A stretch of DNA of 64,000 bases from Candidatus Omnitrophota bacterium (lineage in GTDB: Bacteria > Omnitrophota > Gorgyraeia > B26-G9): positions 36,966 through 100,965 of the forward strand of contig JBDRPX010000025.1 of assembly GCA_043826565.1 (NCBI GenBank). The letters run 5' to 3'. This document shows, one piece after another, positions 3,773-38,781 of the stretch (position 1 is its first letter; each line of letters starts with the position of its first letter). Made by a program: the position numbers and the translations under genes. The notes beneath the pieces are model-generated. The model was not told the DNA's origin and ran no database searches. It saw only the letters and a list, made by a program, of their open reading frames with translations.

Positions 3773-5206
3773 ATGAAATTTAAAAAAGTTTTATTAGTTA
3801 GATTGCCCTATTATGGAACTTTTCTGGGAGATGCTTCGTCTCTTCCTGTGGGGCTTGGATATGTGGCGGAGTCTCTTTACAATCACGGTATTGAGTATAA
3901 TGTGCTTGATTTGGGGTTGTCGGAACATAAACAAAAAGATCTGTTTGATAAAATAGAGCAATATCGTCCGGACCTTATTGGTATTACTATGATGACCATG
4001 CATTATAAGTTTCATTATGAGGCAATCAACGAGATAAAAAAAAGATTTGCTGATGTGAAAATAGTTGTGGGAGGGCCTCATTTATCAACATTTAGAAACA
4101 AAGTATTAGAAGAATGTAAAAGTATTGATTTTGGTGTTGTTTTAGAAGGAGAAGAGACGATTATTGAATTATGCCGCGGTGACGAGCATTCTCAAATTAA
4201 AGGAATTATATATAGGGAAAGAGGGGGAGTTGTTTATTCTGGGGATAGGCCTTTACGTCGTGACCTGGATAATGTTGCTTTTCCTCGATATCGCAATTTT
4301 GAGGTTTCTAAATATCTTGCTAATTCTATTGGAATGCAAACGACAAGAGGATGCCCATACGATTGTATTTATTGCCCCGTTCAATTGGCGATAGGAAAGC
4401 AGTTTAGGGCGCGAAGCCCGGAAAGTATTATCGAGGAGATGATATTTTGGTATGGACAAGGCAAGAGAAACTTTGCTATCTGGGATGATAATTTTACTCT
4501 TATTCAAGACAGGGTATTTAAAATTTGTGATTTAATAGAAAAAAACAAATTTAAGGATTTGTGGATAAGCATCCCTAATGGGATAAGATCAGACAAGGCT
4601 TCATATGAACTTCTTAAGCGGATGCATGAAGTTGGTTTCAGCATGCTTTCTTTTGGAGTTGAGGCTGGGAATAACCGTATATTAAAGAATTTGAAAAAGG
4701 GAACTAATATAGAAAGTATGGAGCGGGCGGTTAAAGATGCCTGCAGTCTGGGATATGAAGTTTATCTTTATTTTATAATTGGTTCTCCGGGGGAAACATG
4801 GAAAGATTTTCAGGACTCACTTAATTTCGCAAAAAGGCATCCGGCGGCGGAAGCTAGATTTTATACTCTTATTCCGTTTCCGAATACTGAACTGTATGAA
4901 TGGGTAAAGAAAAATAATTATTTTATTCGCCAACCAGAAGAATACCTGAATACTGCGGATCATTTTATTAATGCTCCTTGTTTTGCTACTCCGGAAATGT
5001 CTGAAAAACAAAGAAGAAAAGCTTTTAAACAAGGCTGGCAATTAACACAAAAATTCAAGATGACTACAAAGATGAAAAGCTTAAAAAAATCTGGTATATT
5101 TAAAAAGCCTCTTGCGGGATTTCTAATATCAGATTTTTATAAAAAGCTGTATAAAAATAAATGGTTTAGAAATCTGATTGTTGTTCCGTTGAGAAAAATT
5201 AAGTAA
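3773..5206 (+). CDS. Cobalamin (B12)-binding radical SAM enzyme (class B rSAM, likely a methyltransferase or sugar-modifying enzyme)
   Basis: The N-terminal B12-binding-like domain reads VLLVRLPYYGTFLGDASSLPVGLGYVAESL. The canonical CxxxCxxC cluster motif is TTRGCPYDCIYCPV. The ATG at 3773 is preceded by AAGAGGA, and the track's GTG at 3740 is an alternative start. Confidence 0.8.
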   Translation: MKFKKVLLVRLPYYGTFLGDASSLPVGLGYVAESLYNHGIEYNVLDLGLSEHKQKDLFDKIEQYRPDLIGITMMTMHYKFHYEAINEIKKRFADVKIVVGGPHLSTFRNKVLEECKSIDFGVVLEGEETIIELCRGDEHSQIKGIIYRERGGVVYSGDRPLRRDLDNVAFPRYRNFEVSKYLANSIGMQTTRGCPYDCIYCPVQLAIGKQFRARSPESIIEEMIFWYGQGKRNFAIWDDNFTLIQDRVFKICDLIEKNKFKDLWISIPNGIRSDKASYELLKRMHEVGFSMLSFGVEAGNNRILKNLKKGTNIESMERAVKDACSLGYEVYLYFIIGSPGETWKDFQDSLNFAKRHPAAEARFYTLIPFPNTELYEWVKKNNYFIRQPEEYLNTADHFINAPCFATPEMSEKQRRKAFKQGWQLTQKFKMTTKMKSLKKSGIFKKPLAGFLISDFYKKLYKNKWFRNLIVVPLRKIK

Positions 5207-5247
5207 TTATAACTATGGTATATATGCGAATGTTGGAATAATTATAA

Positions 5248-6696
5248 ATGGAAGTAGCTAATAATAAATTGCCTTGTTTAACTTCAAAAAACAATAATTT
5301 AACAGCTTTGATGCTGATGGCATTAATAATGGTGCTATTAGCTGGTTTTTTTTGTTCTTTCTGGGTGAAAATTTTCTTTTTTTTGCTTTTGATCTTAGTG
5401 TTTTTATTAGTAATTTTTGATGATTCGAAAAAAGGGATTCTATTCTTTGCTGCTTCTTTAGCTTTTGCTCCGCCATTGTATCTCATAGCTCCGGTGCATT
5501 TTATTTTTCGTTCAATAAGATTGTATGAGGTTTTGCTATGTATTATCCTGATTTTTGTACTATTACAAACATTAAAATCAGAAAAGAGATTTTTTCATAA
5601 GACTTTATTTGATGTGCCGATTTTATGCATGCTGGGCATATGGATGCTTTCGGTGTTTAACGGCATTTATTTACAGCAGGATTTTTATTTGCGTGATTTT
5701 TTTGAATTTTTGAAGCCGATCCGGTTATTTCTCATATTGCAAATAGTAATTTTTCTTGTTAAAGAAAAAGAATATGCCAAAAAGCTCTTAAGTTTTTTGG
5801 TAGTATTTAGTATTTTTCCCCAATTACTGGGCATTGGGGAGCACTTTAACCTTTTAGGGATAAGAAGATTTATAGCTACAACATATACCGGATATGAATA
5901 TTCTTCAATAATCGCAGGCGGTTTTGATGTGTATGGAGCGGGATTTTTGCATAAGTTCCGAACGTCTTCGATTTTTGTGGGAGATGTGAATGCTTTTGGC
6001 GGGTATTCAGCAATATTTTTTATAATGGCGTTTATATTTTTTATGTATGTGCCTAAAATAAAGAGTAAGATTTTATTTTCTCTGATAGCTCTTTTAAATT
6101 TTTACGGGGTGATTGTTTCAGGGTCAAGAAAAAGTTTGATTTGTGTTGTGTTTGGGATATTGCTCTTTCTTTTATTTAAAATAAGAAAACTACTAAAAGC
6201 TGTACCGCTGGTGATTATAGGTGTTTTAATAATTTTAAAACTGGCTCCGGGCTACTATCTGGAGAGGTTTTTTTTTCATTGGGATTATAAAATAAATAAT
6301 ATTTTAAGGTTATTCAGTCAATTTAGTGAGTTTGGAATTGCGGAATCTCTCATCGGTCGGGGGACGATGCATGAGTTCGGGGCGGATAGTTTTCATCTTA
6401 AATTACTTATTCGAAACGGATTGCTAGGTCTTATTGCACATTTTGTTTTGGTATTTGTAATGCTTAAAATAGCATTTTTTGTGATTAAACATTCTAAACA
6501 TTGGTTTGATGAAATGATCGGAGTAATGGCGTTAATTCTTATTATAAATATGGAATGGCTTAATGTTACGGGATTGTATTTTTATGCCGGCAGAATCTCA
6601 GAGAGTTTCTGGATTGTCTTAGGGGTGCTTTATGCTGTTTATAGAAATATTAGAGCTGATAATTTGCAATTAATAGGGGCTAAGGGGCTAAATTAA
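5248..6696 (+). CDS. Wzy / O-antigen-ligase-like polytopic membrane protein (glycan polymerase or ligase)
   Basis: About 10-12 predicted TM helices with a central loop, a size and topology typical of the Wzy_C family, in a glycan-locus context. The start is uncertain; in-frame ATGs lie downstream. Confidence 0.5.
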   Translation: MEVANNKLPCLTSKNNNLTALMLMALIMVLLAGFFCSFWVKIFFFLLLILVFLLVIFDDSKKGILFFAASLAFAPPLYLIAPVHFIFRSIRLYEVLLCIILIFVLLQTLKSEKRFFHKTLFDVPILCMLGIWMLSVFNGIYLQQDFYLRDFFEFLKPIRLFLILQIVIFLVKEKEYAKKLLSFLVVFSIFPQLLGIGEHFNLLGIRRFIATTYTGYEYSSIIAGGFDVYGAGFLHKFRTSSIFVGDVNAFGGYSAIFFIMAFIFFMYVPKIKSKILFSLIALLNFYGVIVSGSRKSLICVVFGILLFLLFKIRKLLKAVPLVIIGVLIILKLAPGYYLERFFFHWDYKINNILRLFSQFSEFGIAESLIGRGTMHEFGADSFHLKLLIRNGLLGLIAHFVLVFVMLKIAFFVIKHSKHWFDEMIGVMALILIINMEWLNVTGLYFYAGRISESFWIVLGVLYAVYRNIRADNLQLIGAKGLN

Positions 6697-6817: not shown

Positions 6818-7774
6818 ATGAGTGAAAAATTGTCAATCTCAATCATAACAATGAATAATATGGAGATGAACCGGAATTGTCTCCGGTCGATTTTTGAGTA
6901 TAGCCAAGGATTTTCGTTTAAAGTATTTGTTTTAGACAATAATTCAAAAGATGGTACTGTAAATATGATCAAAGAGGAGTTTCCTCAGGTTGAACTGATT
7001 GAAAGTAATGTTAACCGCTGGTTTACTTCTAACCAGAATATAGTATTAAAGCGAGTACAAACTGAGTATGTTTTATTGCTTAATAATGATACTTTATTTT
7101 TAGATGATTCGATTAAATTAATGGTTGATTTTCTCGAAACTCACGAAGATGCCGGAGCGGTCGCCTGTAAAATCCTAAACCCTGATCATAGTTTTCAAAA
7201 AACCACGCTAAGATGTGATTATGATTTACTAACTAATTTTTCTATCAAAACTGGGCTGGTTAAGTTATTTCCCAAAAACAGGATATGGGGGCGTCCGTTC
7301 ATGGGATATGCCGACCGGGAAGCGGTACAGCAGATAGATGTCTATTCCGGAGCATGTGTGATGTTTAGAAAAAAAGTAATTGATGATACGGGGCTTCTTG
7401 ATGAAAACATAAGCTTTGGCCCGGATGATTATGATTACAGTTTGAGAATGAGAAAAAAAGGATGGAAGATATACTATCTGCCCACAGCCAAAGTGATACA
7501 TCTTGATAAACAAACAAGGAAAACTAATTCTGAGTTTCTCCTAGAAGAAGTGAAAGGAATTTTATATTTTTATCTTAAACATTACGGCAAGCTTCAGACA
7601 TTTATTCTGCAAATTCTTATGCTTTATGGAGCATTGTTGAAACCAGTTTACTGGATATATTTAATTTTGTGCAGGAAGCTTACCTTAAGTGAATTAAAAG
7701 ATAATTGTGCGATACATCTTAAATTTTTGAAACTTGTGATATTTTATTCAGGGGCAAAGTTTCATGTGCTTTGA
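6818..7774 (+). CDS. Family 2 glycosyltransferase
   Basis: GT-A N-terminus ISIITMNN...VLDNNSKDGT, with DxD-like NDT and a conserved GT2 layout. Confidence 0.75.
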   Translation: MSEKLSISIITMNNMEMNRNCLRSIFEYSQGFSFKVFVLDNNSKDGTVNMIKEEFPQVELIESNVNRWFTSNQNIVLKRVQTEYVLLLNNDTLFLDDSIKLMVDFLETHEDAGAVACKILNPDHSFQKTTLRCDYDLLTNFSIKTGLVKLFPKNRIWGRPFMGYADREAVQQIDVYSGACVMFRKKVIDDTGLLDENISFGPDDYDYSLRMRKKGWKIYYLPTAKVIHLDKQTRKTNSEFLLEEVKGILYFYLKHYGKLQTFILQILMLYGALLKPVYWIYLILCRKLTLSELKDNCAIHLKFLKLVIFYSGAKFHVL

Positions 7775-7809
7775 TTAAATAGTTAAATTTTGTCGAAAAA
7801 GGAAGTTTT

Positions 7810-9315
7810 ATGCAAGCAGATGCTAAGAGAAAAATTCAAAGGATTCTTTTGATACAGCCTCCATGGTATAGATTGTTTGGCAGTGGAGTAACGGTTAAGA
7901 TTCCTTTAGGATTATGTTATATGTCTGCTGTGCTTAATAAAAACGGATTGGATGCCAGTGTTTATGATGCTGAATTCGCCTCCGGGGAGAGTACGAATCT
8001 TTCTATTTTCGGCATGACTAAGAATATAGACAGCTATCTTGATAAAAACAAAGATCTAAATATGCCGGTGTGGAAGAATGTTGAGAAAAAAATCAGAGAG
8101 TATAATCCTGATGCAGTAGGGATTAGTGTAAAGACTCCTACTTTACGCTCAGGTCTAAATATTGCCAAAATATGTAAGAAAATCAACCCCCAGATGAGTG
8201 TGATTATGGGGGGAGTCCATGCGAGTTGTCTTCCTAAACAAACAGTTTCTTTTTCTGAAGTTGATTTTGTTGTTATCGGCGAAGGAGAGTATACACTTGT
8301 TGATCTAATAAAACGATTAAATTCCGGAGCTGATATTAATGATTGCCCTGGGATTGCTTATAAGAACAAAAATGGAGAAGTGGTTATTAATTCACCCCGT
8401 AAACTTATTGCAAACCTGGATGAATTACCTGTTCCCGATAGGGATAACTTATTGGATAAAAATGAGTACCCTAAGGATAGTTATGGAGAAATATTTACCG
8501 GAAGGGGCTGTCCTTATAGTTGTATTTTTTGTGCTTCAAAAAGTATCTGGGGTCAAAAAACAAGGCATCGGACATCTGAAAAAGTGGTGGAAGAGATTGA
8601 ATTGGTACATAGAAAATACGGTACGGGATATTTTTGCATAGAAGATGATACTTTTATGATGGATAAGAAAAAGATGAATGAGTTTTGCGATTTGCTTATT
8701 AAAAAGAAATTACCCATTAAGTGGGATTGTGAAACTAGAGTTAATCTGGTTACCGAAGAGGCTTTAAAAAAGATAAAAGATGCTGGATGCGTATTGCTCA
8801 ATGTCGGGGTTGAATCAGGAAGTGATGAAACGCTTAAGAAAATAAAAAAGGGTATAACGGTTAATCAGATAGAGAAAGCTTTTAAACTGATCCGCAGAGC
8901 TAAAATTCCGGTAAGTGCTTTTATTATGATTGGTTTCCCATGGGAGAAAAAGGAAGATATGATCCGAACGGTAGATTTTGCGCAGAGTCTCTCTCCTCAG
9001 AGATTGGTTTTAAGTGTGGTAACTCCGTATCCGGGTATTGAACTGTTTGATATTTGTAATGCGCAATACAATATGCAACTTGACGAGAATTGCAAATGGG
9101 AAGAGTTTTTTCATCAAAGTAATAAAGTGGTTCTTCCGGATATGGATAAGAAGGAATTTCATGATCTGGTGGAGGTCTTGGAAAAAAGAGTTATGAATTA
9201 TACTACCCAGATGAGGTTTAAGAGTGCGGAGTTTTGGAAAGCGAGATTTTCAATGTACTTAAAAAGACCGAAAAAAATTATTGATGATATAACTTCTTTG
9301 GTGAAACAGATATGA
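7810..9315 (+). CDS. Cobalamin-binding radical SAM enzyme
   Basis: The B12-binding domain reads RILLIQPPWYRLFGSGVTVKIPLGLCYMSAVL. The cluster motif is GRGCPYSCIFCAS (CxxxCxxC). Confidence 0.8.
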   Translation: MQADAKRKIQRILLIQPPWYRLFGSGVTVKIPLGLCYMSAVLNKNGLDASVYDAEFASGESTNLSIFGMTKNIDSYLDKNKDLNMPVWKNVEKKIREYNPDAVGISVKTPTLRSGLNIAKICKKINPQMSVIMGGVHASCLPKQTVSFSEVDFVVIGEGEYTLVDLIKRLNSGADINDCPGIAYKNKNGEVVINSPRKLIANLDELPVPDRDNLLDKNEYPKDSYGEIFTGRGCPYSCIFCASKSIWGQKTRHRTSEKVVEEIELVHRKYGTGYFCIEDDTFMMDKKKMNEFCDLLIKKKLPIKWDCETRVNLVTEEALKKIKDAGCVLLNVGVESGSDETLKKIKKGITVNQIEKAFKLIRRAKIPVSAFIMIGFPWEKKEDMIRTVDFAQSLSPQRLVLSVVTPYPGIELFDICNAQYNMQLDENCKWEEFFHQSNKVVLPDMDKKEFHDLVEVLEKRVMNYTTQMRFKSAEFWKARFSMYLKRPKKIIDDITSLVKQI

Positions 9316-11159
9316 ATATAGCAATCAATGCTTTTTCTGCGTATTCTTATGGAGGCCTGCAGTATTTAAAAAACCTTCTTTCCGGGTTGCTTGAAAAAAA
9401 AAGCAAAAACATCTATTTCGTTTTTGTAACTAAAAAAAATAAGCATGAGTTTGATTATACTCATCAGAATTTGAAGATAATTGTGTCAAACTTTGCCGGA
9501 TACAATATAATTTGCCGGGTTATCTGGGAACAGTTTGTTTTACCTTTTGTGCTCAAAAAATTAAGAATAGATACAATATATATCCCTAACGGAATGGATA
9601 TATTTTTTTCGCCTACCAGAACGGTTGTTTGTGTGCAGAATATGGAAGTCTTTACCTATCATAACTATCCGAATGCTTTTACATTAAATATGCGTTCGTT
9701 TATTCTGAATATTATAACTCGTATATCTCTTAGAACAGCTGACCACATAATAGCTGTTTCTAATCGCGTTAAAAAGTTTCTCGAGATTCAGTTTGATGTG
9801 CCGGATGAAAAAATAAGCTGTATATATCATGGCCGGGATACTGATTTTGCTAAAAAGAAGGAAACAGAATGTTGCAAAGATGTTCTTGATAAATTTGAAA
9901 TTAATAAAGAATATATTTTTACAGCTTCAAAGATGGTTGCATATTCAAATATGTATAATCTGCTTAAGGCTTTTGAGAGGTATTCTAAGACGAGTAAATC
10001 TGATATAATGCTTGTTATTGCCGGTGGTCTTTGGGACAATAAGTACGCGAAATTATTGCGTGATTTTGTAAAAGAAAAAAAAATAAGTGAGAAAGTGAAA
10101 TTTCTGGAATATGTCGGACATAGCGAAATGCCGGCTTTGTTTTGGGGGGCTAAAATATTTGCTTTCCCTTCAACAGTTGAGGCTTGTCCGATAACTCTAA
10201 TTGAAGCTTTGACTGCCGGGGCTGGTATTATAACGTCAAATATTGAACCTATGCCGGAAATATGTAAAGACGCAGCTGTTTATTTTGATCCTAATAATGT
10301 TGATAATATGACGGGGGCTATTAAAACTCTAGTTGATAACCAGGAACTCATCATCATGCTTAGAGAAAAAGCCCTGAAACGTGCGGAGTTTTTTTCCTGG
10401 AAAAAGTCTGTAAAAAAAACGCAAAGAGTGCTGGAAGGAGTGAAAAAAATGTCTAAAGTCTGGAATAAAGCGCAGGAACTAGAATCAGAGTGGTGGAAAC
10501 TCAAAAAGGAAGAAATAATTTCTCAATCATACCGCAATCAGATAAAAGAAAGATCTGTCCGTATAGAGAAATGGATAGATAAGAAGGTCTCTATTACTGA
10601 AAAATCTAATATTTTAGAAATAGGTGGAGGGGCTACTCAATTGATTGATTTTTTTGATAAAGGTAATAAATATGCGGTTGACCCTTTAGCTGATATGTAT
10701 CAACGCGAATTTTCTCAGGTGCTTGATCCAAAAACTAAATGGCATAAGGCGAAAGTAGAGGAGATGCCTTTTGAAGACAGCTTTTTCGATGTTATCATAA
10801 TCAGGAATGTTCTTGACCATGTTGATTCGGCAAGTAAGGCTTTGAAGGAAATAAATCGTGTTTTGAAGGATAGCGGGGTCTTATATCTGGGGATGAATAC
10901 TTTTTCCGGGCCGTACTATGTCTATAAATTAATTGTTAAAGATCCGGAACACCCATACACTTTTACTCCTAAATCAATAAGGAGTCATATAGTAAAATCT
11001 AAATTTAAAATTGTTGATTTAATTGATGATGCACCAGAAAACATGAAGCATTTTTCGGATCAGTTGGCATCCGTTTCAAAACTTAAGGCTTTTTTACGAG
11101 ACATAGTGTTTTCTTTGAATTGTTTTCACTTTAGCGAGTTTCTTTTAAAAAGAGGTTAG
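9312..11159 (+). CDS. Bifunctional fusion: GT4 (family 1-fold) glycosyltransferase N-terminally, class I SAM-dependent methyltransferase C-terminally
   Basis: The N-terminal ~380 aa have a GT-B layout with an EX7E-like region (FPSTVEACPITLIEALTAGAGIITS). The C-terminal ~220 aa carry methyltransferase motif I ILEIGGGATQ and the post-I/II motifs VIIIRNVLDHVD. There is a 4-nt overlap with the upstream gene. Confidence 0.7.
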   Translation: MNIAINAFSAYSYGGLQYLKNLLSGLLEKKSKNIYFVFVTKKNKHEFDYTHQNLKIIVSNFAGYNIICRVIWEQFVLPFVLKKLRIDTIYIPNGMDIFFSPTRTVVCVQNMEVFTYHNYPNAFTLNMRSFILNIITRISLRTADHIIAVSNRVKKFLEIQFDVPDEKISCIYHGRDTDFAKKKETECCKDVLDKFEINKEYIFTASKMVAYSNMYNLLKAFERYSKTSKSDIMLVIAGGLWDNKYAKLLRDFVKEKKISEKVKFLEYVGHSEMPALFWGAKIFAFPSTVEACPITLIEALTAGAGIITSNIEPMPEICKDAAVYFDPNNVDNMTGAIKTLVDNQELIIMLREKALKRAEFFSWKKSVKKTQRVLEGVKKMSKVWNKAQELESEWWKLKKEEIISQSYRNQIKERSVRIEKWIDKKVSITEKSNILEIGGGATQLIDFFDKGNKYAVDPLADMYQREFSQVLDPKTKWHKAKVEEMPFEDSFFDVIIIRNVLDHVDSASKALKEINRVLKDSGVLYLGMNTFSGPYYVYKLIVKDPEHPYTFTPKSIRSHIVKSKFKIVDLIDDAPENMKHFSDQLASVSKLKAFLRDIVFSLNCFHFSEFLLKRG

Positions 11160-14372: not shown

Positions 14373-14398
14373 TCTATTATACGAGAAAGGACAAAACT

Positions 14399-15520: not shown

Positions 15521-15547
15521 AAATCCTTTTCTAAATCCTAAACGATA

Positions 15548-16504: not shown

Positions 16505-16506
16505 TT

Positions 16507-23468: not shown

Positions 23469-23500
23469 TTTGATAATTTCAATCAAAAAAAGGATGGAAA

Positions 23501-25854: not shown

Positions 25855-25924
25855 TTACTAATTTCTAATTGACCTAAAAAAAGAGAAAGATGGAATAAAT
25901 TTCTAATTTCTAATTAACCTAAAA
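25833..25924. repeat. Imperfect tandem duplication (~45 bp x2) of the 3' end of the GT2 gene (AGAAAGATGGAATAAATTTCTAATT...CCTAAAA)
   Basis: Copy 1 overlaps the last 7 codons and stop of the GT2 CDS (…KDGINF*). Copy 2 begins 50 bp later with the same 25-mer and an internal TCTAATT repeat. Confidence 0.6.
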
Positions 25925-26025
25925 TGAGTGAAAATAAAGATAAAAAGTATGATTTAGAAGAGCGGACTGCCAAATTCGCAGAGGAAATTGTTCGTTTTGC
26001 AAAGCGAATAAAGAAGGATGTCTAG
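25924..26025 (+). pseudogene. 33-codon remnant of a 'four-helix-bundle' (23S rRNA intervening-sequence type) protein gene
   Basis: MSENKDKKYDLEERTAKFAEEIVRFAKRIKKDV* matches the N-terminal helix of the ~120-aa four-helix-bundle family (xDLEERxxxFAxxIIxxxxxL) and stops prematurely. This match is recalled from memory, not searched. Confidence 0.4.
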
Positions 26026-26127
26026 GCATTAGAGCAATTAAATGACTTTACAAACGGGTATGGCTCATAGTTTTTACTATTGACTATCGACTATTGACCG
26101 TTTAACATTAAGGACTTTCAACTAATT

Positions 26128-30135: not shown

Positions 30136-30137
30136 CT

Positions 30138-31109: not shown

Positions 31110-31122
31110 AGAGATAATATCT

Positions 31123-32109: not shown

Positions 32110-33872
32110 TGAAGTTATCAGATTATGTTATAAATTTTTTAGTACAGCAAAAAGTTGAGTATATATTTGAAATATGTGGCGGAGCGATTACGCATTTGCT
32201 TGATTCTGTTTACAAAAGGACAGATATTAAAGCGATTCCCATGCATCATGAGCAGACAGCAGCATTTGCGGCAGAAGGTTATGCGCGCATCAATGGGAAT
32301 ATCGGTGTTGCGATGGCTACAAGCGGTCCTGGGGCAACTAATTTGATTACAGGCATTGGTAGTTGTTTTTTTGATTCAATCCCCTGTTTGTTTATTACCG
32401 GGCAGGTAAATACTTACGAATTTAAATTTAAAAAACCAATAAGACAACTAGGTTTTCAGGAAACAGATATCGTTACTATGGTAAAGCCGATTGTTAAAGA
32501 CAGTGTGCTTATCGAAGACCCCAATAAAATACGATATGAATTGGAACGGCTGATCCATATTGCTAAATCAGGCCGGCCAGGCCCGGTTTTACTGGATATC
32601 CCCATGAATGTTCAGCGTGCAGATATCAACCCAAGTAAATTAAAAGCGTTCAAAAAAAATGCTATTAATAAAGCTCCTCTACAGATAAAAAACAAGGTAT
32701 GGGGAAAGGTTGTAGAGTTAATCCATAATTCTTCCCGGCCTTTGGTTATCGTCGGTGGAGGTCTGAGGCTATCGCAGTCTTCAGATGAACTTTATGCTTT
32801 TATAAATAAGACTAAAATGCCTGTAGTGAGCACTTTAATCGGCAAAGATGCTTTTGCTAATGATCATAAGCAGTTTGTCGGAATGATGGGAACATATGGT
32901 CTGCGACATGCTAATTTAGCTGTTGCGAATGCCGATTTAATAATTGTTCTCGGGGCAAGGTTAGATACAAGACAAACCGGTACTAGACCGGATACTTTTT
33001 CACGTGGGGCAAAGATAGTGCATGTGGATGTAGACGCTAATGAACTAAACAGTAAAGTCCGGGCAGACATTGCCATTTGTGCGGATATAAAATTATTCCT
33101 AAAGGGGATTAATAAAAGAATTAGTAAATATGATTCTAAGAGAATATCCCGGTGGCGTAAAATTATTCAGCAGTACAAGCAGAAATATTCTCAAAAAAAT
33201 AATTCCAAGAATGCAATAGATCCGAATTTATTTTTGGAAGACGCTTCAAAGTATATGTCAAAAGACAGCGTTATATGTGTGGATGTAGGACAGCATCAAA
33301 TGTGGGCGGCGCAATCTGTGCAATTGAAAAAACAGCAGAGATTCCTGACCCAGGGAGGAATGGGAGCAATGGGATCCGCGCTTTCGTTCGCAATCGGAGC
33401 TTGTTTTGCCAAGCCCCGAACAACGGCAGTGGTGGTGACCGGAGATGGTGGATTTCAATTAAATTTACAGGAATTGCAGACGGTTTATTATTATCAGTTG
33501 CCGATTAAAATAATTATGTTGAATAATTCATGTTATGGAATGGTGCGGCAATTTCAAGAACAATACTTCCGGTCGCGTTTTCAGTCAACAGTTGTTGGCT
33601 ATAATGCTCCAAATTTTCAAAAAGTAGTTTCTTCTTTTGGAATAAAATCGAATCGCTTAGTTTATGAGAGAGATATAATAAAAAAGTTTAAAGACTTGTT
33701 TAAAGATAATAAACCCGCATTTCTTGAAGTAAAAATCCCAAAAGATGTTAAAGTCCTTCCCAAATTATCGGTGAATAGGCCAATAGAGGATCAAGACCCC
33801 TTATTATCGCGTGAAGAGCTTCAGTCTAATATGCAGATTGAGGTGCTAAAGGAGTATGAAAGTGAATTCTGA
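32109..33872 (+). CDS. Thiamine-diphosphate-dependent enzyme of the acetolactate-synthase large-subunit family (YerE-like two-carbon branching enzyme candidate)
   Basis: It has the three-domain ALS/POX layout. The ThDP-binding motif is GDGGFQLNLQEL...NNSCYGMV (GDG...NN). It is embedded in a CDP-dideoxyhexose module. Confidence 0.7.
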   Translation: MKLSDYVINFLVQQKVEYIFEICGGAITHLLDSVYKRTDIKAIPMHHEQTAAFAAEGYARINGNIGVAMATSGPGATNLITGIGSCFFDSIPCLFITGQVNTYEFKFKKPIRQLGFQETDIVTMVKPIVKDSVLIEDPNKIRYELERLIHIAKSGRPGPVLLDIPMNVQRADINPSKLKAFKKNAINKAPLQIKNKVWGKVVELIHNSSRPLVIVGGGLRLSQSSDELYAFINKTKMPVVSTLIGKDAFANDHKQFVGMMGTYGLRHANLAVANADLIIVLGARLDTRQTGTRPDTFSRGAKIVHVDVDANELNSKVRADIAICADIKLFLKGINKRISKYDSKRISRWRKIIQQYKQKYSQKNNSKNAIDPNLFLEDASKYMSKDSVICVDVGQHQMWAAQSVQLKKQQRFLTQGGMGAMGSALSFAIGACFAKPRTTAVVVTGDGGFQLNLQELQTVYYYQLPIKIIMLNNSCYGMVRQFQEQYFRSRFQSTVVGYNAPNFQKVVSSFGIKSNRLVYERDIIKKFKDLFKDNKPAFLEVKIPKDVKVLPKLSVNRPIEDQDPLLSREELQSNMQIEVLKEYESEF

Positions 33873-35193
33873 CGAAAAATTAATAAGAAAAGAAATTCTT
33901 AGTAAAGTTAAAAAATTTTATGCGGCAGGAAAAAACAAAAAATTTATTCCGGGCAAGAGCAGGATCCCTTATGCCGGACGTATTTTTGATGAAAAAGAAT
34001 TAGTCAATCTGGTTGACTCATCTTTGGATTTTTGGCTGACTGCCGGAAGGTATGCCCGGAAACTAGAAAAGCAGTTGGCGGAATTTGTTGGGGTAAAGCA
34101 TGCTTTACTGGTTAACTCAGGTTCCTCGGCAAATCTATTGGCAATAAGTGCTTTAACATCACCTCTTCTGAAAGAGCGGCGATTAAAACCGGGTGATGAA
34201 GTAATTACAACGGCTTGCGGGTTTCCGACCACATTAAACCCTATTTTACAGAACCAGTTAAACCCGGTAATTCTCGATGTGGAGCTGGGTACGTATAATA
34301 TTGACACCACAAAGCTTAAAAAAGCAATTACCAAGAAGACAAAAGCAGTTTTTGTTGCGCATACTTTGGGTAATCCATTTAATTTAGAAGCAGTATTAAA
34401 GATAGCTAGGAAGCATAAATTGTTTGTTATTGAGGACAATTGTGACGCGCTTGGTTCGAAATATAAAGACCGTTTTACCGGAGCTTATGGTGATATTGCA
34501 ACTTTGAGTTTTTATCCGGCCCATCATATGACTATGGGGGAAGGCGGTGCCGTATTAACTAGCGATCCTGTTTTAAGAAGAGCATTGCTTTCTTTGCGTG
34601 ACTGGGGCCGGGATTGCTGGTGTGATCCGGGCAGAGATAATACTTGCCGTAAGCGGTTTAAACAGCAGTTTGGTAAATTGCCTTATGGATATGATCATAA
34701 ATATGTATATTCGCATATTGGGTATAACCTGAAAGTTACTGATATGCAGGCAGCGATCGGCGTGGCTCAGTTAAAAAAACTTAAAGGTTTTATTAAAAAG
34801 CGCAAAGAGAACTTTGCTTTTCTGCATAAGAGCCTAAAAAAGTTCGAAAAATACCTGTTATTGCCCCAGGCAACCAAAAATTCTGATCCTAGCTGGTTTG
34901 GATTTCCCCTGATGGTAAAGACACCGTCAGCATTTACTCGTGATGAAATTGTTAATTATTTGGAGAATAGAGGGATCGCCACGAGGATGTTATTTGGAGG
35001 AAATTTAATTAAACAGCCGGCATATAAAGGAATAAAGATGAAGGTTGTGGGGACACTTAAAAACACAGATTTAGTTATGAATGATTTATTCTGGATTGGG
35101 GTGTACCCGGGAATTAATCGATTAAAATTGAAGTATGTAATTAAGGAAATAGAGGCATTCATACTAAAGATTCAGATGCCGCAATCGGGATGA
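33856..35193 (+). CDS. rfbH: CDP-6-deoxy-D-xylo-4-hexulose 3-dehydrase (E1; RfbH/DdhC, DegT/PMP-dependent family)
   Basis: FIPGKSRIPYAGRIFDEKELVNLVDSSLDFWLTAGRYARKLEKQLAEFVGVKHALLVNSGSSANLLAIS closely parallels the RfbH N-terminal region. The conserved downstream block DNCDALGSKY is present, with the position homologous to the pyridoxal-binding Lys occupied by His in the E1-type enzymes. Confidence 0.8.
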   Translation: MKVNSDEKLIRKEILSKVKKFYAAGKNKKFIPGKSRIPYAGRIFDEKELVNLVDSSLDFWLTAGRYARKLEKQLAEFVGVKHALLVNSGSSANLLAISALTSPLLKERRLKPGDEVITTACGFPTTLNPILQNQLNPVILDVELGTYNIDTTKLKKAITKKTKAVFVAHTLGNPFNLEAVLKIARKHKLFVIEDNCDALGSKYKDRFTGAYGDIATLSFYPAHHMTMGEGGAVLTSDPVLRRALLSLRDWGRDCWCDPGRDNTCRKRFKQQFGKLPYGYDHKYVYSHIGYNLKVTDMQAAIGVAQLKKLKGFIKKRKENFAFLHKSLKKFEKYLLLPQATKNSDPSWFGFPLMVKTPSAFTRDEIVNYLENRGIATRMLFGGNLIKQPAYKGIKMKVVGTLKNTDLVMNDLFWIGVYPGINRLKLKYVIKEIEAFILKIQMPQSG

Positions 35194-35200: not shown

Positions 35201-36418
35201 ATGGTGCAAGAGTGTTTTTTTATTGCAAATAATAATATTGGAGATTCCGGTTTAAGCGGCGGGTGCAGAATTTTTATTGAACTGGCTCGATATTGGAAAG
35301 AATCGATTGATCTAAAGATAATTGCCACAGAAGAAGCCATCACAGTTTGTAAAAAGTATGGGCTGGGAGATATTAAGTTCTATAAATCGTCCGGCAAACT
35401 AGGATATGATAATGTTTTTACTTTAAGGGCTGTTTTTGCAAATTTTTTCAAGAAATTAGCAAAGGGAATATTATTTGTATTAAAAAATAAATCCTTATTT
35501 AAAAATAATCCCTGGGTGTATTCAGTCTCGGATTTCTATCCTGATCTTATCCCGGCTTTCTTAATAAAATTAATAAATCCGAAATCAAGATGGATTGCCG
35601 GATATTATTTATTTGCACCTGCTCCCTGGGATAAAGATAGCCCCTACAAAGGTAAACATGCTTTTCGGGGCTTTCTTTATTGGTTCTCGCAAAGGCTCTC
35701 TTATGGCCTTGCAAAAAAATATGCGGATATTGTTTTTGTGACTTCCGAGCCGGATAAAAAGAAATTTCTGACTAAAAAAAGAGGAGAGTCTGAAATTTTT
35801 GTTATCCGGGGAGGTGTTAATATCGAAGCATCAACAGAATATTTAAATAGTAAGGAGATTATCCCTTTAGATAAGAGGAAGTATGCATGCTGCTTTGTGG
35901 GAAGATTTCATCAGCAAAAAGGGGTTTTAGTTTTAATAGAGATATGGAAAAAAGTTATTGAGAGATTACCCCGTGCTAAACTTGCGATGATTGGTAATGG
36001 CCCGCTTCAGGTGAGTGTGCAAAATAAGATTAATGAATATAGTTTAAATGACAATGTGGAATTGTTTGGTTTTATGGATGGGCTCGAGAAATTTAATGTT
36101 TTTAAACAGAGTAAAATTGTCGTACATCCGGCAACTTATGATAGTGGGGGCATGGCGGCAGCAGAGGCTATGGCGTGGGGCTTGCCTGGAATAAGCTTTG
36201 ATCTGGAGGCTTTAAAGACTTATTACCCTCAGGGTATGATAAAAGTTCCTAAGGATGATTATAACCGGTTTGCTGAGGAAATAGTTAAACTGCTGGCGGA
36301 CTCTGATTATTATAAAACAATTTCTTTGTTAGCTCTTGAGTTGATAGTTAAACAGTGGGATTGGAAAAAACGGGCACAGCTAATTTTGGAAGGGTTGTTG
36401 GTTAATAATAATGGATAA
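35201..36418 (+). CDS. GT-B fold glycosyltransferase (family 4/1)
   Basis: The C-terminal domain has EX7E-like HPATYDSGGMAAAEAMAWGLPGIS. Confidence 0.65.
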   Translation: MVQECFFIANNNIGDSGLSGGCRIFIELARYWKESIDLKIIATEEAITVCKKYGLGDIKFYKSSGKLGYDNVFTLRAVFANFFKKLAKGILFVLKNKSLFKNNPWVYSVSDFYPDLIPAFLIKLINPKSRWIAGYYLFAPAPWDKDSPYKGKHAFRGFLYWFSQRLSYGLAKKYADIVFVTSEPDKKKFLTKKRGESEIFVIRGGVNIEASTEYLNSKEIIPLDKRKYACCFVGRFHQQKGVLVLIEIWKKVIERLPRAKLAMIGNGPLQVSVQNKINEYSLNDNVELFGFMDGLEKFNVFKQSKIVVHPATYDSGGMAAAEAMAWGLPGISFDLEALKTYYPQGMIKVPKDDYNRFAEEIVKLLADSDYYKTISLLALELIVKQWDWKKRAQLILEGLLVNNNG

Positions 36419-37274
36419 CATTAAGGTTTCACTTATAATTACTACAAAAAATGCTCAACAGTATATTGCCGGATGTTTAGATTCAATAAAATATCAGAAT
36501 TACAATCAATCTGAAATTGAAGTTATAGTTGTTGATAATAATTCTACTGATAAAACTAAAGAAATAGCTTCTAAGTATACGGATAAAATCTACAACTGCG
36601 GTCCGGAGCGTTCAGCGCAAAGGAATTTTGGGATTAGTAAGGCATTGGGAAAATATGTTCTTTATCTTGATGTCGATATGTTGCTTTCTGAAAATGTCCT
36701 TTCAGAGTGTGTAGAGAAAATAGAGGCTGATGATCTGATTGCTTTATATGTCCCGGAGGTAATCGTCGGTAAAGGGTTTTGGATACAGGTGAGAAACTTT
36801 GAACGCAGTTTTTATAATGCAACGGTTGTTGACTGTGTTCGTTTTATAAAAAAAGATGCATTTATGAAAATAAAAGGATTTGATGAAAATTTAACCGGCC
36901 CGGAGGATTGGGATTTAGACAGAAGAATAAATCAAACTGGAAAAACATCAATAATAAATGTTCCGATTTATCACAATGAAGGTGTTTTTAACCTTAAAAA
37001 CTATTTACTTAAAAAAAGCTACTATTCAAAAACATTTGAAAAATATGTGCAAAAGTGGGGAAAAAATGACGCAATAATAAAAAAACAGCTTGGGTTTTCT
37101 TATCGGTTTTTTGGTGTGTTTATAGAAAATGGAAAATGGAAAAAACTTATCAGTTGTCCTGTTTTTACATGGGGTATGTATTTTTTGAGATTTTTAGTTG
37201 GGCTTACATTCCTTGTGTCTAGAATCGGCCGAAATCCTTTAAAAAATAAAGGTAATATTTATGGACAGAAATAG
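36411..37274 (+). CDS. Family 2 glycosyltransferase
   Basis: VSLIITTKNAQQYI...VVDNNSTDKT...YLDVDM (DxD). Confidence 0.7.
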   Translation: MDNIKVSLIITTKNAQQYIAGCLDSIKYQNYNQSEIEVIVVDNNSTDKTKEIASKYTDKIYNCGPERSAQRNFGISKALGKYVLYLDVDMLLSENVLSECVEKIEADDLIALYVPEVIVGKGFWIQVRNFERSFYNATVVDCVRFIKKDAFMKIKGFDENLTGPEDWDLDRRINQTGKTSIINVPIYHNEGVFNLKNYLLKKSYYSKTFEKYVQKWGKNDAIIKKQLGFSYRFFGVFIENGKWKKLISCPVFTWGMYFLRFLVGLTFLVSRIGRNPLKNKGNIYGQK

Positions 37275-38781
37275 TGCTAATAATAAAATCTTGTTTGTTT
37301 CTCCGCCTTCTAGAGCATTTAACCACTATCGTCCGCCGTTGGCATTAATGTATCTTTCTGGTTATTTAAAAAAACAGGGAGTTGCTGCTAAAATTATTGA
37401 TTGTATTATTCAAGATCAGGTGAGAAGTAAGTCTTTTGAAAAAAATAAAGACAGATATCTGACTGATGTGCGTGATAATATGCTAAAGCAGATTATTGAA
37501 GCTGAAACAGATATAGTGTGTATTACCTGTTATACCCCGGAATTGCCGGAAGTAGAGGTCCTTGCCGCCCAAATAAAGAAGAAAAATAGTAATATAAAAA
37601 TTATTGCCGGAGGTGTTCATCCTACTTTTTATCCTGAACATCTTATTTATGAGGGTTCTAATTTCGATTTTGTTGTTGTTGGCGAAGGAGAAGTTACTCT
37701 TTTTGAATTAATAAAAGCTATTCGCAGTGATAGTAATGATTACGGTCTTATTGAGGGGATAGCTTATTTAGATGTTGAAAAAAATAAACTAGTTAAAAAT
37801 AAAGGACGTATTCTGGCCGAAGATTTAGATGAAATATCATTTCCTGATTATGCGGATTTAGATATGGATTTTTATACAACAGCTTCGCCGTATGCAATAA
37901 GAGGGGTGTTTTCTAAAAGCTTTTATGTGTTATCTTCCCGGGGGTGCCCATCTTCATGCACTTTTTGTGTTTCAAAAAAAATTAGAGAGTTTTATGCCGG
38001 AGAGAAATTTGTCAGGCTTCGTTCGCCAGAGTCCCTTTTTCGGGAAGTTAAGGAGTTAAGAGAGAAATATAAAATTGACTCTTTTTATTTTATTGATGAT
38101 CTTTTTACTTTAAAGAAAGACCATGTCGGAGAATTTTGCCGATTAATGATTGATGATAAGTCTCCATTGATTTGGGGATGTTCCTCAAAAGTTAATACTG
38201 TTGACTATGAGATGCTGAAAAATATGGCTGATGCCGGTTGTGTGCAGATTGATTTTGGCGTTGAAAAAGGAACAGATTCTGAGCTGAAACAGCTGAAAAA
38301 GGGGATAACCATTGCGCAGATAAAAAAAACATTTGATATCTGCCGGAAACTGGGTATCCGCACTTTTGCGAATATGCTGGTTAATACTCCGGCAGAGCAA
38401 GAAGCTGATTTGAAATCGTCTTTAACATTTGTCCAACGTTTACGTCCAACCATAGTTTCTTTTAATGTTTTTGCCCCTTATCCGGGGTGTGAAATTTTTG
38501 ACCGGTGCTGTGAAAATATCACTAGAGATGATTATCCTGATTTAATGAATACTGTTTTGCTGATTAAGGATAAGCCGGAGAAATACAGATTTGCCGAGCA
38601 TTCTGTGGATTTGCTGGATTGGGTTATTAAAGCTAATAAAAAATATAATCTGATTTTTCCTAATCTCAGGATATATTTTAGTTGGAAATATATTAAAAAC
38701 ATTCTTAGATCAAGATGCAAAATGGAATATGTAAAAGGATCGGTCAGCTTGGTAAAAGAATTTATTAATCAGAAATTTTAG
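37261..38781 (+). CDS. Cobalamin-binding radical SAM enzyme
   Basis: The B12-binding domain reads ILFVSPPSRAFNHYRPPLALMYLSGYLKKQG. The cluster motif is SRGCPSSCTFCVS. Confidence 0.8.
   Translation: MDRNSANNKILFVSPPSRAFNHYRPPLALMYLSGYLKKQGVAAKIIDCIIQDQVRSKSFEKNKDRYLTDVRDNMLKQIIEAETDIVCITCYTPELPEVEVLAAQIKKKNSNIKIIAGGVHPTFYPEHLIYEGSNFDFVVVGEGEVTLFELIKAIRSDSNDYGLIEGIAYLDVEKNKLVKNKGRILAEDLDEISFPDYADLDMDFYTTASPYAIRGVFSKSFYVLSSRGCPSSCTFCVSKKIREFYAGEKFVRLRSPESLFREVKELREKYKIDSFYFIDDLFTLKKDHVGEFCRLMIDDKSPLIWGCSSKVNTVDYEMLKNMADAGCVQIDFGVEKGTDSELKQLKKGITIAQIKKTFDICRKLGIRTFANMLVNTPAEQEADLKSSLTFVQRLRPTIVSFNVFAPYPGCEIFDRCCENITRDDYPDLMNTVLLIKDKPEKYRFAEHSVDLLDWVIKANKKYNLIFPNLRIYFSWKYIKNILRSRCKMEYVKGSVSLVKEFINQKF

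Follow-up and report, generated by a model that had tools for sequence, protein, structure and literature searches.

Among radical SAM enzymes of class B, C-methyltransferases, including the sugar-acting gentamicin enzymes, are by far the largest characterised group, and the superfamily also carries out ring contraction, ring formation and thioether formation (PMC12931638). Class B enzymes hold cobalamin in the base-off state, the protein ligand or motif is not conserved, and there is no diagnostic sequence signature of cobalamin binding. In moenomycin biosynthesis, MoeK5 C-methylates a lipid-linked saccharide. Here, we describe four proteins, rS1 to rS4, encoded in a 47-kb surface-polysaccharide gene cluster of the Wzx/Wzy type from a Candidatus Omnitrophota MAG; the window analysed is the whole 64,000-nucleotide stretch that contains it. 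Full-text literature searches found no characterised close homolog of these proteins. We propose, with a probability of roughly one half, that all four are glycan-tailoring radical SAM enzymes of class B architecture serving the Wzx/Wzy pathway, organised in modules with a glycosyltransferase (GT) and a methyltransferase and acting by C-methylation.

The four genes are intact ORFs on the forward strand, present where the initial annotation had placed them: rS1 (3773-5206, 477 aa), rS2 (7810-9315, 501 aa), rS3 (26128-27618, 496 aa) and rS4 (37261-38781, 506 aa). The ATG at 3773 agrees with the N-termini of rS1 homologs; the mechanical ORF begins at a GTG at 3740. Their identification as B12-binding radical SAM proteins holds for all four, each exceeding the Pfam gathering cut-offs of both PF04055 (29.5 bits) and PF02310 (32.1 bits), with respective scores of 85.2 and 71.1 bits for rS1, 101.6 and 62.1 for rS2, 62.6 and 35.5 for rS3, where the second is marginal, and 74.9 and 73.0 for rS4. 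The translations contain the CxxxCxxC motif reported at 3773, 7810 and 37261 (CPYDCIYC, CPYSCIFC and CPSSCTFC) and the Cx4Cx2C spacing reported at 26128 (CWWGKCTFC). The latter is invariant in its clade, C228, C233 and C236 being conserved in 19 orthologs and two distant relatives (37-53% identity). With pairwise identities of 23-36%, rS1-rS4 are, as judged from sequence, old paralogs. Nor are the four alike: rS3 and rS4 are members of widely conserved families, identity among rS2 homologs drops under 50% beyond the three nearest matches, and rS1 has a 71% ortholog in the closest related contig.

All genes from 4 to 47542 lie on the same strand, and nearly every one is, according to the ORF list and Pfam, a gene for sugar nucleotides, a GT, a flippase or a polymerase. 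The locus opens 5′ of rS1 with a YdjC/HpnK-like carbohydrate deacetylase (4-783; PF04794, 150.8 bits), whose best NCBIfam match, HpnK, scores 117.7 bits against a cut-off of 232.6, and continues with a 963-aa polytopic membrane protein (806-3697) that has at least 14 hydrophobic segments by hydropathy and no family match in Pfam or NCBIfam searches. Core assembly genes (12439-20454), whose synteny is partly common to the closest related contig (L002), encode an RmlD-like reductase, an FnlA/CapE-type dehydratase, a UDP-GlcNAc 2-epimerase, an SDR, a small phosphoglycosyl transferase (Bac_transf), a PglF-like dehydratase and a Wzy polymerase. The interleaving of GT and radical SAM genes noted in the initial annotation is borne out by Pfam, which assigns GT2 genes at 6818, 21724, 24829, 28331 and 36411 and GT4 genes at 9312, 11211 and 35201. 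A GT2 lies immediately 5′ of rS2, rS3 and rS4, and a methyltransferase immediately 3′ of the same three genes, in fused form beside rS2. Class I methyltransferases were correctly placed at 27634, 38821 and 40791 (ORF 40770/40791), all above Pfam cut-offs. A CDP-hexose block (29362-35193, + strand), absent from the initial annotation, comprises genes for a glucose-1-P cytidylyltransferase, a CDP-glucose 4,6-dehydratase-like SDR, an SDR reductase, an acetolactate-synthase-like, YerE-like ThDP enzyme and an RfbH/E1 3-dehydrase. Two of its NCBIfam matches exceed their cut-offs (TIGR02623, 392.7 vs 300; RfbH, 716.7 vs 423) and two fall below (TIGR02622, 246.8 vs 278; ALS, 512.6 vs 538). No cobalamin synthesis or uptake genes are visible in the window.

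Conserved partners accompany both of the first two radical SAM genes. An rS1 ortholog of 71% identity occurs in L002, followed, as here, by a polytopic membrane protein (5248-6696, + strand; 58% identity) with about 13 hydrophobic segments and a weak likeness to Wzy (sub-threshold Wzy_C match). Homologs of rS1 (39-48% identity) are fused in one polypeptide to GT4 (P0370, P0371), and others are fused to GT2 (P0380), to a methyltransferase (P0372) or to two methyltransferases plus GT2 (P0445), class I methyltransferase domains being among the partners. The GT2 5′ of rS2 (6818-7774, + strand) is matched in L002 and L003 by a 67% ortholog at the corresponding position. The identities of rS2 homologs run 70, 66 and 48%, then below 48%. 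Overlapping the rS2 stop by 4 nt is the start of the GT4-methyltransferase fusion (9312-11159, + strand) that the initial annotation had recognised, in which Pfam places GT4 at residues 19-356 and the class I methyltransferase at residues 428-526. A second assembly (L001) has the same fused ORF, its counterpart in L002 consists of two separate genes, GT4 (54%) and methyltransferase (70%), and methyltransferase fusions are also found among rS2 relatives.

The rS3 module is anchored by a GT2 with a C-terminal transmembrane bundle at residues 248-323 (24829-25854, + strand), immediately 5′ of rS3. This GT2-rS3 pair is conserved in three other Omnitrophota/PVC genomes (L086, L087 and L088), where the start of the rS3 ortholog lies 4 nt inside the GT2 ortholog (44-54%), so that rS3 follows a membrane-anchored GT2 in every locus compared. 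Here, the two genes are separated by a 273-nt insertion with a 52-bp duplication. The upstream half of the module, a Wzx flippase, an ArnC/PpgS-like GT2, an SDR and a UDP-glucose dehydrogenase (20474-24796, + strand; Pfam and NCBIfam), keeps its order in L086 with orthologs 46-82% identical; of these genes only the GT2 directly precedes the pair in L087 and L088, and in L087 a Wzx homolog lies downstream of rS3. The class I methyltransferase (27634-28338) and GT2 (28331-29359) 3′ of rS3 have orthologs (59% and 51%) near the rS3 ortholog in L088. rS3 itself belongs to a strongly conserved family, found mostly in Omnitrophota, with 6,473 matches; the best 120 share 65% identity or more along the full length, those among the 120 that carry a name belonging to Omnitrophota or the PVC group. 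Its B12-like domain is divergent: several orthologs have no PF02310 match on record, and the model of rS3 has a Rossmann-like N-domain at a pLDDT of only 67.6.

rS4 has more than 120 clusters of relatives at 48% identity or above, spanning Omnitrophota, Kiritimatiellae, Nitrospina, Firestonebacteria, Shapirobacteria and Methanoperedens. It is preceded by a GT4 (35201-36418), whose orthologs (48-50%) likewise precede rS4 orthologs in L089, L090 and L091, and a GT2 (36411-37274), with orthologs (46-62%) in L087, L088 and L089. The 307-aa class I methyltransferase that follows (38821-39744; PF13489, 82.9 bits) has an N-terminal CxxC...CxxC pattern and a C-terminal hydrophobic helix; its orthologs lie directly 3′ of rS4 orthologs in the Nitrospina contig L089 (45%) and in L091 (38%). 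The GT4-rS4 arrangement is kept in Nitrospina, Kiritimatiellae and Shapirobacteria (CPR) contigs, and the downstream methyltransferase in Nitrospina and Shapirobacteria. The next gene (39844-40749) encodes a protein of 301 aa that is conserved, with a 47% ortholog in the rS4 cassette of L091, and may have a degenerate methyltransferase fold. The initial annotation called it a probable methyltransferase, an assignment that is unproven: four methyltransferase families match residues 106-158, all of them below threshold, and a PDB sequence search returned no match. A 224-aa class I methyltransferase (40770-41444; PF08241, 73.5 bits) follows, and an 828-aa protein with about eight N-terminal transmembrane segments and a C-terminal DUF3108 (41459-43945) ends the run. 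All of these genes are on the forward strand.

Four such genes in one locus had been considered unusual, a view that does not survive comparison with other genomes: at least two B12-binding radical SAM genes occur in 33 of 80 related loci, two of the 80 hold 7 and 8 within 21 kb, and close relatives and other phyla are arranged likewise. The related loci contain 90 GTs in 1.2 Mb, a density beside these genes far above our own expectation for bacterial genomes in general. The proposed glycan-tailoring role is argued for strongly by the abundance of GTs and class I methyltransferases in the Wzx/Wzy locus, by synteny across phyla and by the fusions of rS1 homologs. Because many uncultivated microbes have the same pairings, some even as a single fused protein, it is very probable that rS1-rS4 modify a glycan or its sugar precursors. 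We conclude that the pairing of B12-binding radical SAM enzymes with GTs and methyltransferases is a real, recurrent and uncharacterised glycan-tailoring use of class B-type enzymes.

In the mechanism we propose, each radical enzyme would work in a small module with a partner GT (GT2 or GT4) and, in most cases, a class I SAM methyltransferase. At the cytoplasmic face, the GT would add a sugar to what is presumably an undecaprenyl-diphosphate-linked oligosaccharide; for rS3, with its membrane-anchored GT2, the acceptor may be a polyprenyl-phosphate or a lipid. Reductive cleavage of SAM by the [4Fe-4S] cluster would yield a 5′-deoxyadenosyl radical that takes a hydrogen off an unactivated sugar carbon, and methylcobalamin, putatively held in the N-terminal Rossmann domain, would methylate the substrate radical to give a C-methyl sugar, with O- or N-methyl groups contributed by the class I methyltransferases. 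That at least one of rS1-rS4 is a cobalamin-dependent C-methyltransferase we put at slightly less than an even chance. The tight pairing and fusion with class I methyltransferases means that the radical enzyme could do something else, and the marginal B12 domain and non-canonical motif of rS3, together with the ThDP route to C-branches already in the locus and the absence of visible cobalamin synthesis or uptake genes from the window, also count against methylation.

That the substrate is not a carbohydrate at all (a lipid anchor, peptide, cofactor or phosphonate undergoing P-methylation), the genes merely riding a hypervariable glycan island, appears improbable. Sub-threshold similarity to ladderane-lipid, RiPP (ApyD, rSAM_ocin_1) and P-methyltransferase (PhpK, Sden_1168) families would agree with it, as would the hypervariable, mobile-cargo-rich nature of Omnitrophota polysaccharide cassettes (preprint 10.64898/2026.06.07.730766). 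A GT lies within 10 kb in 47 of the 80 related loci; the 33 in which none is annotated there would also fit such a substrate, although GT detection is under-sensitive (in L004, three GT2 genes by Pfam and one by phmmer). Against such a substrate, rS1 homologs are found covalently joined to GT4 and GT2 domains, and the gene order with GTs, in which start and stop codons overlap, is kept in four phyla; moreover, the annotated ORFs of the window include none for a PEP mutase, a precursor peptide or lipid synthesis. More improbable still is that unusual sugars come only from the ThDP pathway and class I methyltransferases, some radical SAM genes being redundant or decaying. The CDP-hexose block likely supplies a 3,6-dideoxy, C-branched sugar and matches the yersiniose (YerE/YerF) pathway type, a known radical-independent route to C-branched sugars (PMC9306805), and the insertion and duplication upstream of rS3 could be read as decay. 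However, none of the four ORFs is truncated and every cluster motif is intact, rS1 and rS2 have orthologs of about 70% identity in conserved synteny, and the identity of rS3 (65-81%) and rS4 (48-80%) to many orthologs indicates purifying selection.

A more substantial alternative, though one we still consider unlikely, is that the radical enzymes tailor sugars without methylating them, by AprD4-like dehydration or deoxygenation, by contracting a ring in the manner of HpnJ or OxsB, to give a carbocyclic or rearranged sugar, or by oxidation or epimerisation, all methyl groups then coming from the class I enzymes, a division of labour that the methyltransferase fusions would suggest. Ring contraction is known in the superfamily, and the leading family match of rS1, rS2 and rS3 (HpnJ) and the leading structural match of rS2 and rS3 (AprD4) point the same way. 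This alternative seems most plausible for rS3, with its divergent B12 domain and Cx4Cx2C motif. The pairing of rS3 with a GT2 bearing a C-terminal transmembrane bundle resembles that of HpnJ with HpnI, and a YdjC/HpnK-like deacetylase stands at the start of the locus. Nevertheless, the window has no hopanoid gene context, none of the locus GT2s is specifically HpnI-like by NCBIfam, HpnJ, BchE and AprD4 all match at scores well under their cut-offs (147-220 vs 578; 30-102 vs 500), and most characterised members of the superfamily are methyltransferases (PMC12931638).

The proposed C-methylation can finally be set against the known enzymes themselves. None of rS1-rS4 reaches the equivalog cut-off of any characterised family in NCBIfam; the best matches, HpnJ for rS1, rS2 and rS3 (aligned over the full length of rS3, residues 32-468) and BchE for rS4, attain, together with ApyD, 25-45% of the respective cut-offs, and none of these three families is assigned as a methyltransferase in a 2026 review (PMC12931638). 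In the PDB, the sequences of rS1, rS2 and rS3 come closest to MgmA (9CCB), a cobalamin-dependent methylase, and that of rS4 comes closest to AprD4, which is also the top structural match of rS2 and rS3. The C-methyl sugars predicted in the initial annotation are a reasonable guess, and C-methylation is the likeliest chemistry, albeit unproven: the AF2 model of rS2 (pLDDT 90.6), a Rossmann domain with a partial TIM barrel, fits AprD4, a sugar diol dehydratase that shares the fold but does not bind cobalamin, as well as it fits MgmA. Regardless of the chemistry, all four proteins share the two-domain class B-type architecture, and the rS2 model matches every solved structure of that type in Foldseek, led by AprD4, MgmA, OxsB, TsrM, CysS and TokK.

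Nucleotides 4–47542 form a single very large sugar locus, in a window of ~35% G+C in which all sizeable genes between 4 and 62342 lie on the + strand. The locus begins with a YdjC-type deacetylase gene (at 4) and a 963-aa polytopic membrane protein without a family match (806–3697; at least 14 hydrophobic segments), and continues through UDP-HexNAc modification genes together with a small phosphoglycosyl transferase and a PglF-like dehydratase (12439–19165), Wzy (19237), Wzx (20474), a UDP-glucose dehydrogenase (23501), a CDP-hexose block (29362–35193) and GalE-, RmlA- and ManC-like genes (43960–47542), all on the + strand, with five GT2 and three GT4 glycosyltransferases (GTs) in all. The initiating phosphoglycosyl transferase (Bac_transf, 194.6 bits), flippase (Polysacc_synt/Polysacc_synt_3, 43–48 bits) and polymerase (Wzy_C, 78.7 bits) of a Wzx/Wzy-dependent surface polysaccharide locus were all found, each over its Pfam cut-off. 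Two large polytopic membrane proteins, that at 806–3697 and one at 41459–43945 (828 aa, ~8 TM segments, a DUF3108 domain at the C-terminus), bracket the parts of the locus that bear radical SAM genes and could be GT-C-like transferases or polymerases; an 824-aa protein without a Pfam match comes after a B12-type radical SAM gene in a related contig, L004. Pilin, glycogen and housekeeping genes (uppS-cdsA-dxr-rseP-ispG-proS) lie 3′ of the sugar locus. The type IV pilin directly 3′ of it (48144–48545) carries an N-terminal methylation motif and a ComP/DUS-receptor-like domain, and is followed by a ParA/MinD-type ATPase (AAA_31, CbiA) fused to a glycogen-binding CBM48/AMPK1_CBM domain (48676–49761), an unusual combination, after which come a second CbiA-like ORF and, nearby, a DUF4912 protein with a glucodextranase-B domain (52593) and a GH57 branching enzyme (54083).

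The initial annotation had read four B12-binding radical SAM proteins (B12-rSAMs) in this locus, here called rS1 (3773–5206), rS2 (7810–9315), rS3 (26128–27618) and rS4 (37261–38781), and Pfam bears this out in all four, with PF04055 at 62.6–101.6 bits (cut-off 29.5) and PF02310 at 71.1, 62.1, 35.5 and 73.0 bits, respectively (cut-off 32.1). The PF02310 match of rS3 is marginal, and some rS3 orthologs have no such match recorded. The canonical CxxxCxxC motif is present as described in rS1 (CPYDCIYC), rS2 (CPYSCIFC) and rS4 (CPSSCTFC), as is the Cx4Cx2C spacing of rS3 (CWWGKCTFC). Because the three rS3 cysteines are unchanged in 19 orthologs and in two relatives from other phyla (53% and 37% identity), the variant spacing is a clade trait and not an error. 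Pairwise identity among the four proteins is 23–36%, and they are old paralogs. The AlphaFold model of rS2 is confident (pLDDT 90.6) and can be aligned with radical SAM structures already solved, that of rS3 is weaker (pLDDT 67.6), and five beta-alpha units are predicted in the N-domain of both. In Foldseek, the rS2 model matched AprD4 (TM 0.74) about as well as MgmA (0.72), followed by OxsB, TsrM, CysS and TokK, and the rS3 model gave the same list of fold matches with AprD4 on top. The best PDB sequence match was MgmA/QCMT (9CCB) for rS1–rS3 and AprD4 (6FD2) for rS4.

None of the four reached the NCBIfam cut-off of any characterised family. The top matches were HpnJ, BchE and ApyD, then many others, all far under threshold: for rS1–rS4 in order, HpnJ (TIGR03471) gave 171.6, 220.5, 146.8 and 163.1 bits against a cut-off of 577.6, BchE (TIGR02026) 125.5, 209.6, 123.4 and 176.1 against 481.35, and the AprD4-type model (NF033070) 60.5, 102.5, 30.7 and 75.4 against 500, while the MgmA model TIGR04014 gave 63–139 bits against 360. 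Assignment to an equivalog is ruled out by these scores, by which the four proteins would be deep, unassigned branches. A P-methyltransferase or phosphonate role, raised by matches to PhpK and Sden_1168, was likewise set aside, as the annotated ORFs of the window include neither a PEP mutase nor a phosphonate gene.

That the four proteins belong to a glycan pathway, as first proposed, is well supported by local arrangement, synteny, gene fusions and a survey of related loci, and we put the probability that they act on the glycan or its precursors at roughly 0.8. A GT2 gene lies directly upstream, and a class I SAM methyltransferase (MT) gene directly downstream, of each of rS2, rS3 and rS4; the one following rS2 is a GT4::MT fusion whose start overlaps the rS2 stop. 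Pfam upholds both the class I MTs at 27634, 38821 and 40770 and the fusion at 9312. The further MT suspected at 39844 could not be confirmed, having sub-threshold Pfam matches alone and no PDB match. The fused gene (9312–11159) corresponds to two separate genes with an 8-nt overlap in the closest related contig, L002 (11485–13333; 54% and 70% identity), and a second assembly, L001, also has the fused form, which a recent fusion or else a frameshift would explain. At its N-terminus the MT at 38821–39744 bears a CxxC...CxxC pair (zinc-ribbon-like), and at its C-terminus a hydrophobic helix; its Nitrospina ortholog keeps both features, suggesting a membrane-tethered enzyme. Between rS3 and its GT2 (24829) lies a 273-nt spacer (25855–26127); in three orthologous loci the two genes overlap by 4 nt instead. 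The spacer starts with a 52-bp tandem duplication of the 3′ end of the GT2 gene (38 nt, 92% identity) and holds a 33-codon ORF, MSENKDKKYDLEERTAKFAEEIVRFAKRIKKDV, whose resemblance to four-helix-bundle/23S rRNA intervening-sequence proteins was not borne out by any significant Pfam match; the spacer may be an insertion scar.

The same neighbours recur elsewhere. In L002, where rS2 is 70% identical, the order is GT4-GT2-rS2-GT4-MT followed by the same sugar genes, and an rS1 ortholog (71%) is followed by an ortholog (58%) of the same polytopic membrane protein. The rS3 family yields 6,473 matches below 1e-15 and is very conserved: the best 120 of these 6,473 are at least 65% identical over the full length, and those among the 120 with a named source come from Omnitrophota or the PVC group. 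In three further genomes (L086, L087 and L088), the rS3 ortholog is preceded, with a 4-nt overlap, by a 44–54% identical GT2; this partner carries a transmembrane bundle at its C-terminus. An ArnC-like GT2 directly precedes the partner GT2 in L087 and L088, and in L086 an ArnC-like GT2, an SDR and a UDP-glucose dehydrogenase come before it, as in the window. A Wzx homolog adjoins in all three, lying downstream of rS3 in L087 and upstream in the other two, and CDP-sugar genes lie near the rS3 ortholog in L086 and L088. The rS4 family is conserved too, with over 120 clusters at 48% identity or more, and includes members from Omnitrophota, Kiritimatiellae, Nitrospina, Firestonebacteria, Shapirobacteria and Methanoperedens. 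The GT4 at 35201 has orthologs (48–50%) ahead of rS4 in the Nitrospina, Kiritimatiellae and Shapirobacteria contigs, and an ortholog of the MT at 38821 (307 aa) follows it in two of the three (45% in Nitrospina, 38% in Shapirobacteria). An ortholog of 39844 (47%) is present in the Shapirobacteria contig as well, and both this contig and the Nitrospina one have an rS3-like gene.

A full HMMER scan with rS1 returned 5,662 cluster representatives below 1e-30. Among the best matches are single polypeptides in which a B12-rSAM is fused to a GT4 (P0370, P0371), a GT2 (P0380), a class I MT (P0372), or two MT domains and a GT2 (P0445), as well as tandem arrays of four or five B12-rSAM units (P0374, P0408); MT fusions are found among rS2 relatives as well. 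Several database homologs are giants with three to six tandem B12-binding/radical SAM units (P0374, 2096 aa; P0408, 2331 aa; P0435, P0436, P0454 and P0455), one of them with a SPASM domain, and these may be related to proteins that a preprint describes in Omnitrophota as very long and sugar-metabolism-rich (10.64898/2026.06.07.730766). A profile of the rS2 clade was also scanned against one genome per species, and the best 80 loci, drawn from both Bacteria and Archaea, were retained and annotated with iterated HMMs. At least one GT lies within 10 kb in 47 of the 80 loci, with 90 GTs over 1.2 Mb, counts that are likely conservative. The initial annotation had called four such enzymes in one locus unusual; this does not hold, since two or more B12-rSAMs occur in 33/80 loci, with maxima of 7 (an Omnitrophota MAG) and 8 within 21 kb, and uncultivated anaerobes show the arrangement repeatedly. 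The gene family had already been seen to expand, without explanation, for example to 7–20 copies per Bathyarchaeia genome. The GT-rich contig L004 has three consecutive ~345-aa radical SAM/Fer4_12 proteins without a B12 domain (6908–9997) followed by four B12-rSAM genes, and another related locus, L005, carries rSAM-SPASM proteins in addition, so that these glycan loci draw in further radical SAM classes.

The chemistry of the four enzymes is less settled than their setting. In solved class B enzymes, cobalamin is bound base-off with no conserved protein ligand or motif, and MgmA has not even the usual lower-axial hydrophobic residue; the DxHxxG motif is absent from the rS1–rS4 sequences, as expected of class B. 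Because AprD4 and ArsL have the same Rossmann/B12-type domain and no cobalamin (PMC12931638), and because there is no conserved ligand to look for, neither sequence nor fold can settle cobalamin dependence. A structural model, which the initial annotation had put forward as a test, can neither refute nor confirm it, since cobalamin-free AprD4 and the cobalamin enzyme MgmA match that of rS2 equally. We judge the chance that at least one of the four is a cobalamin-dependent C-methyltransferase to be somewhat short of even. The best PDB sequence match of three paralogs (rS1–rS3) is a methylase, and methyltransferases, some of them sugar-acting, dominate the characterised members of the superfamily (PMC12931638). 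Set against this, the 2026 review of B12-type radical SAM enzymes gives no methyltransferase assignment to HpnJ, BchE or ApyD, the nearest family models (PMC12931638), AprD4 is an equally good structural match, and rS3 combines a marginal B12 domain with a variant cluster motif. Those same points would accommodate another kind of radical sugar chemistry, which we consider unlikely overall. The constant pairing or fusion with class I MTs is as compatible with a division of labour as with double methylation.

Finding a C-branched sugar in this glycan would not be enough to point to the radical enzymes, since the CDP-hexose block at 29362–35193, overlooked by the initial annotation, probably offers another route to branched sugars. 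Its glucose-1-phosphate cytidylyltransferase is over, and its RfbH/E1 well over, the respective NCBIfam equivalog cut-off. A CDP-glucose 4,6-dehydratase-like SDR is slightly under (246.8 against 278.45 bits), and a ThDP enzyme, compared without a YerE-specific model, is acetolactate-synthase-like (512.6 against 538.35 bits) and adjoins a second SDR. In yersiniose synthesis, the branch comes from pyruvate, which YerE adds to CDP-4-keto-3,6-dideoxyglucose, and is reduced by YerF (PMC9306805). The likeness to this pathway extends to a CDP-glucose synthase, dehydratase-like SDR, RfbH/E1, acetolactate-synthase-like ThDP enzyme and SDR, all within the block, and differs in that no E3 reductase (DdhD/AscD type) was found in the window. 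A yersiniose-type branched-sugar pathway is thus probable rather than proven, given the missing E3 and the manner in which the ThDP enzyme was matched. An FAD_binding_6/NAD_binding_1 protein adjoins the rS3-like gene in the Nitrospina contig (L089).

Whatever their products, the fold and radical initiation of these enzymes are familiar, and what is new is their context: conserved GT and MT partners, fusion proteins and a wide distribution in candidate phyla. Full-text searches of a literature set that leaves most subscription journals outside found no characterised B12-rSAM in O-antigen, capsule or polymer-level glycan assembly. The 2026 review counts more than 220,000 B12-type radical SAM enzymes, of which a few dozen are characterised, and never mentions polysaccharide or glycan (PMC12931638). 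We speculate, as a doubtful proposal, that class B-type radical SAM enzymes coupled to GTs make up a large, unstudied group acting on polymer-level or lipid-linked surface glycans, that the group occurs widely among uncultivated anaerobes (Omnitrophota, Nitrospinota, PVC, CPR, DPANN and Bathyarchaeia), and that at least one of its clades is non-methylating. The best candidate for the latter would be rS3, whose Cx4Cx2C motif is invariant, whose B12 domain is divergent and whose partner is a membrane GT2; by analogy to HpnJ, its product might be a carbocyclic or rearranged sugar. Such a group would have a substrate class without a characterised example and would supply a function for part of the unexplained COG1032 expansions, such as those in Bathyarchaeia. 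The locus and its relatives offer a concrete, testable assignment for several large clades, namely surface-glycan tailoring with specific GT and MT partners; the conserved cassettes and fusions yield a hypothesis, open to direct testing, for a large set of sequences that lack annotation, and the fusion proteins point to domains for co-expression. Should the products be C-methylated or rearranged sugars, they would represent new monosaccharide chemistry in bacterial and archaeal envelopes, would bear on the variable surfaces of episymbiotic or host-dependent lineages (Omnitrophota, CPR, DPANN), and would make these enzymes catalysts for late-stage C-H functionalisation of carbohydrates.

Several known systems resemble parts of this arrangement. 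MgmA/QCMT (9CCB), a cobalamin-dependent glutamine C-methyltransferase acting on methyl-coenzyme M reductase, is about the size of rS1–rS4 (450 aa) and aligns over both domains with rS1 and rS2, but its substrate is a protein and its identity to the rS proteins is ~20%. AprD4 (6FD2), the radical SAM 1,2-diol dehydratase of apramycin synthesis, has the two-domain fold common to the rS2 and rS3 models and an aminosugar substrate, and differs in belonging to an antibiotic pathway and in binding no cobalamin. The HpnI-HpnJ-HpnK system of hopanoid cyclitol-ether synthesis is similar in gene content: rS1, rS2 and rS3 each have HpnJ as their best NCBIfam match, and a GT2 (membrane-anchored in the case of rS3), a B12-type radical SAM protein and a YdjC-family deacetylase all occur within the locus. 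The YdjC protein is a generic one, however, scoring 117.7 bits against the HpnK cut-off of 232.6, and its gene lies 25 kb from rS3. The 64-kb window has no hopanoid genes (hpnH, shc, hpnI or hpnK), and none of its GT2s reaches HpnI. Membership in the HpnI/HpnJ/HpnK system is ruled out by the sub-cut-off scores, the lack of hopanoid context and GT2s that are not HpnI-like, and we retain it as a mechanistic analogy. GenK and GenD1 (gentamicin) and MoeK5 (moenomycin) share with rS1–rS4 an N-terminal B12-type Rossmann domain followed by a radical SAM barrel. They also act on sugars, in the case of MoeK5 on a lipid-linked saccharide, and their genes adjoin glycosyltransferases, with class I MTs in the same cluster, a likeness drawn from architecture and gene context. 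All three are classed as Csp3 methyltransferases (PMC12931638). They serve actinomycete antibiotic pathways, whereas rS1–rS4 lie in a Wzx/Wzy surface polysaccharide locus of an uncultivated anaerobe and, unlike them, are four distant paralogs with relatives fused to GTs. The four proteins are thus built like GenK, GenD1 and MoeK5 or like the non-methylating HpnJ, OxsB and AprD4, and by analogy would work as one or the other of these does.
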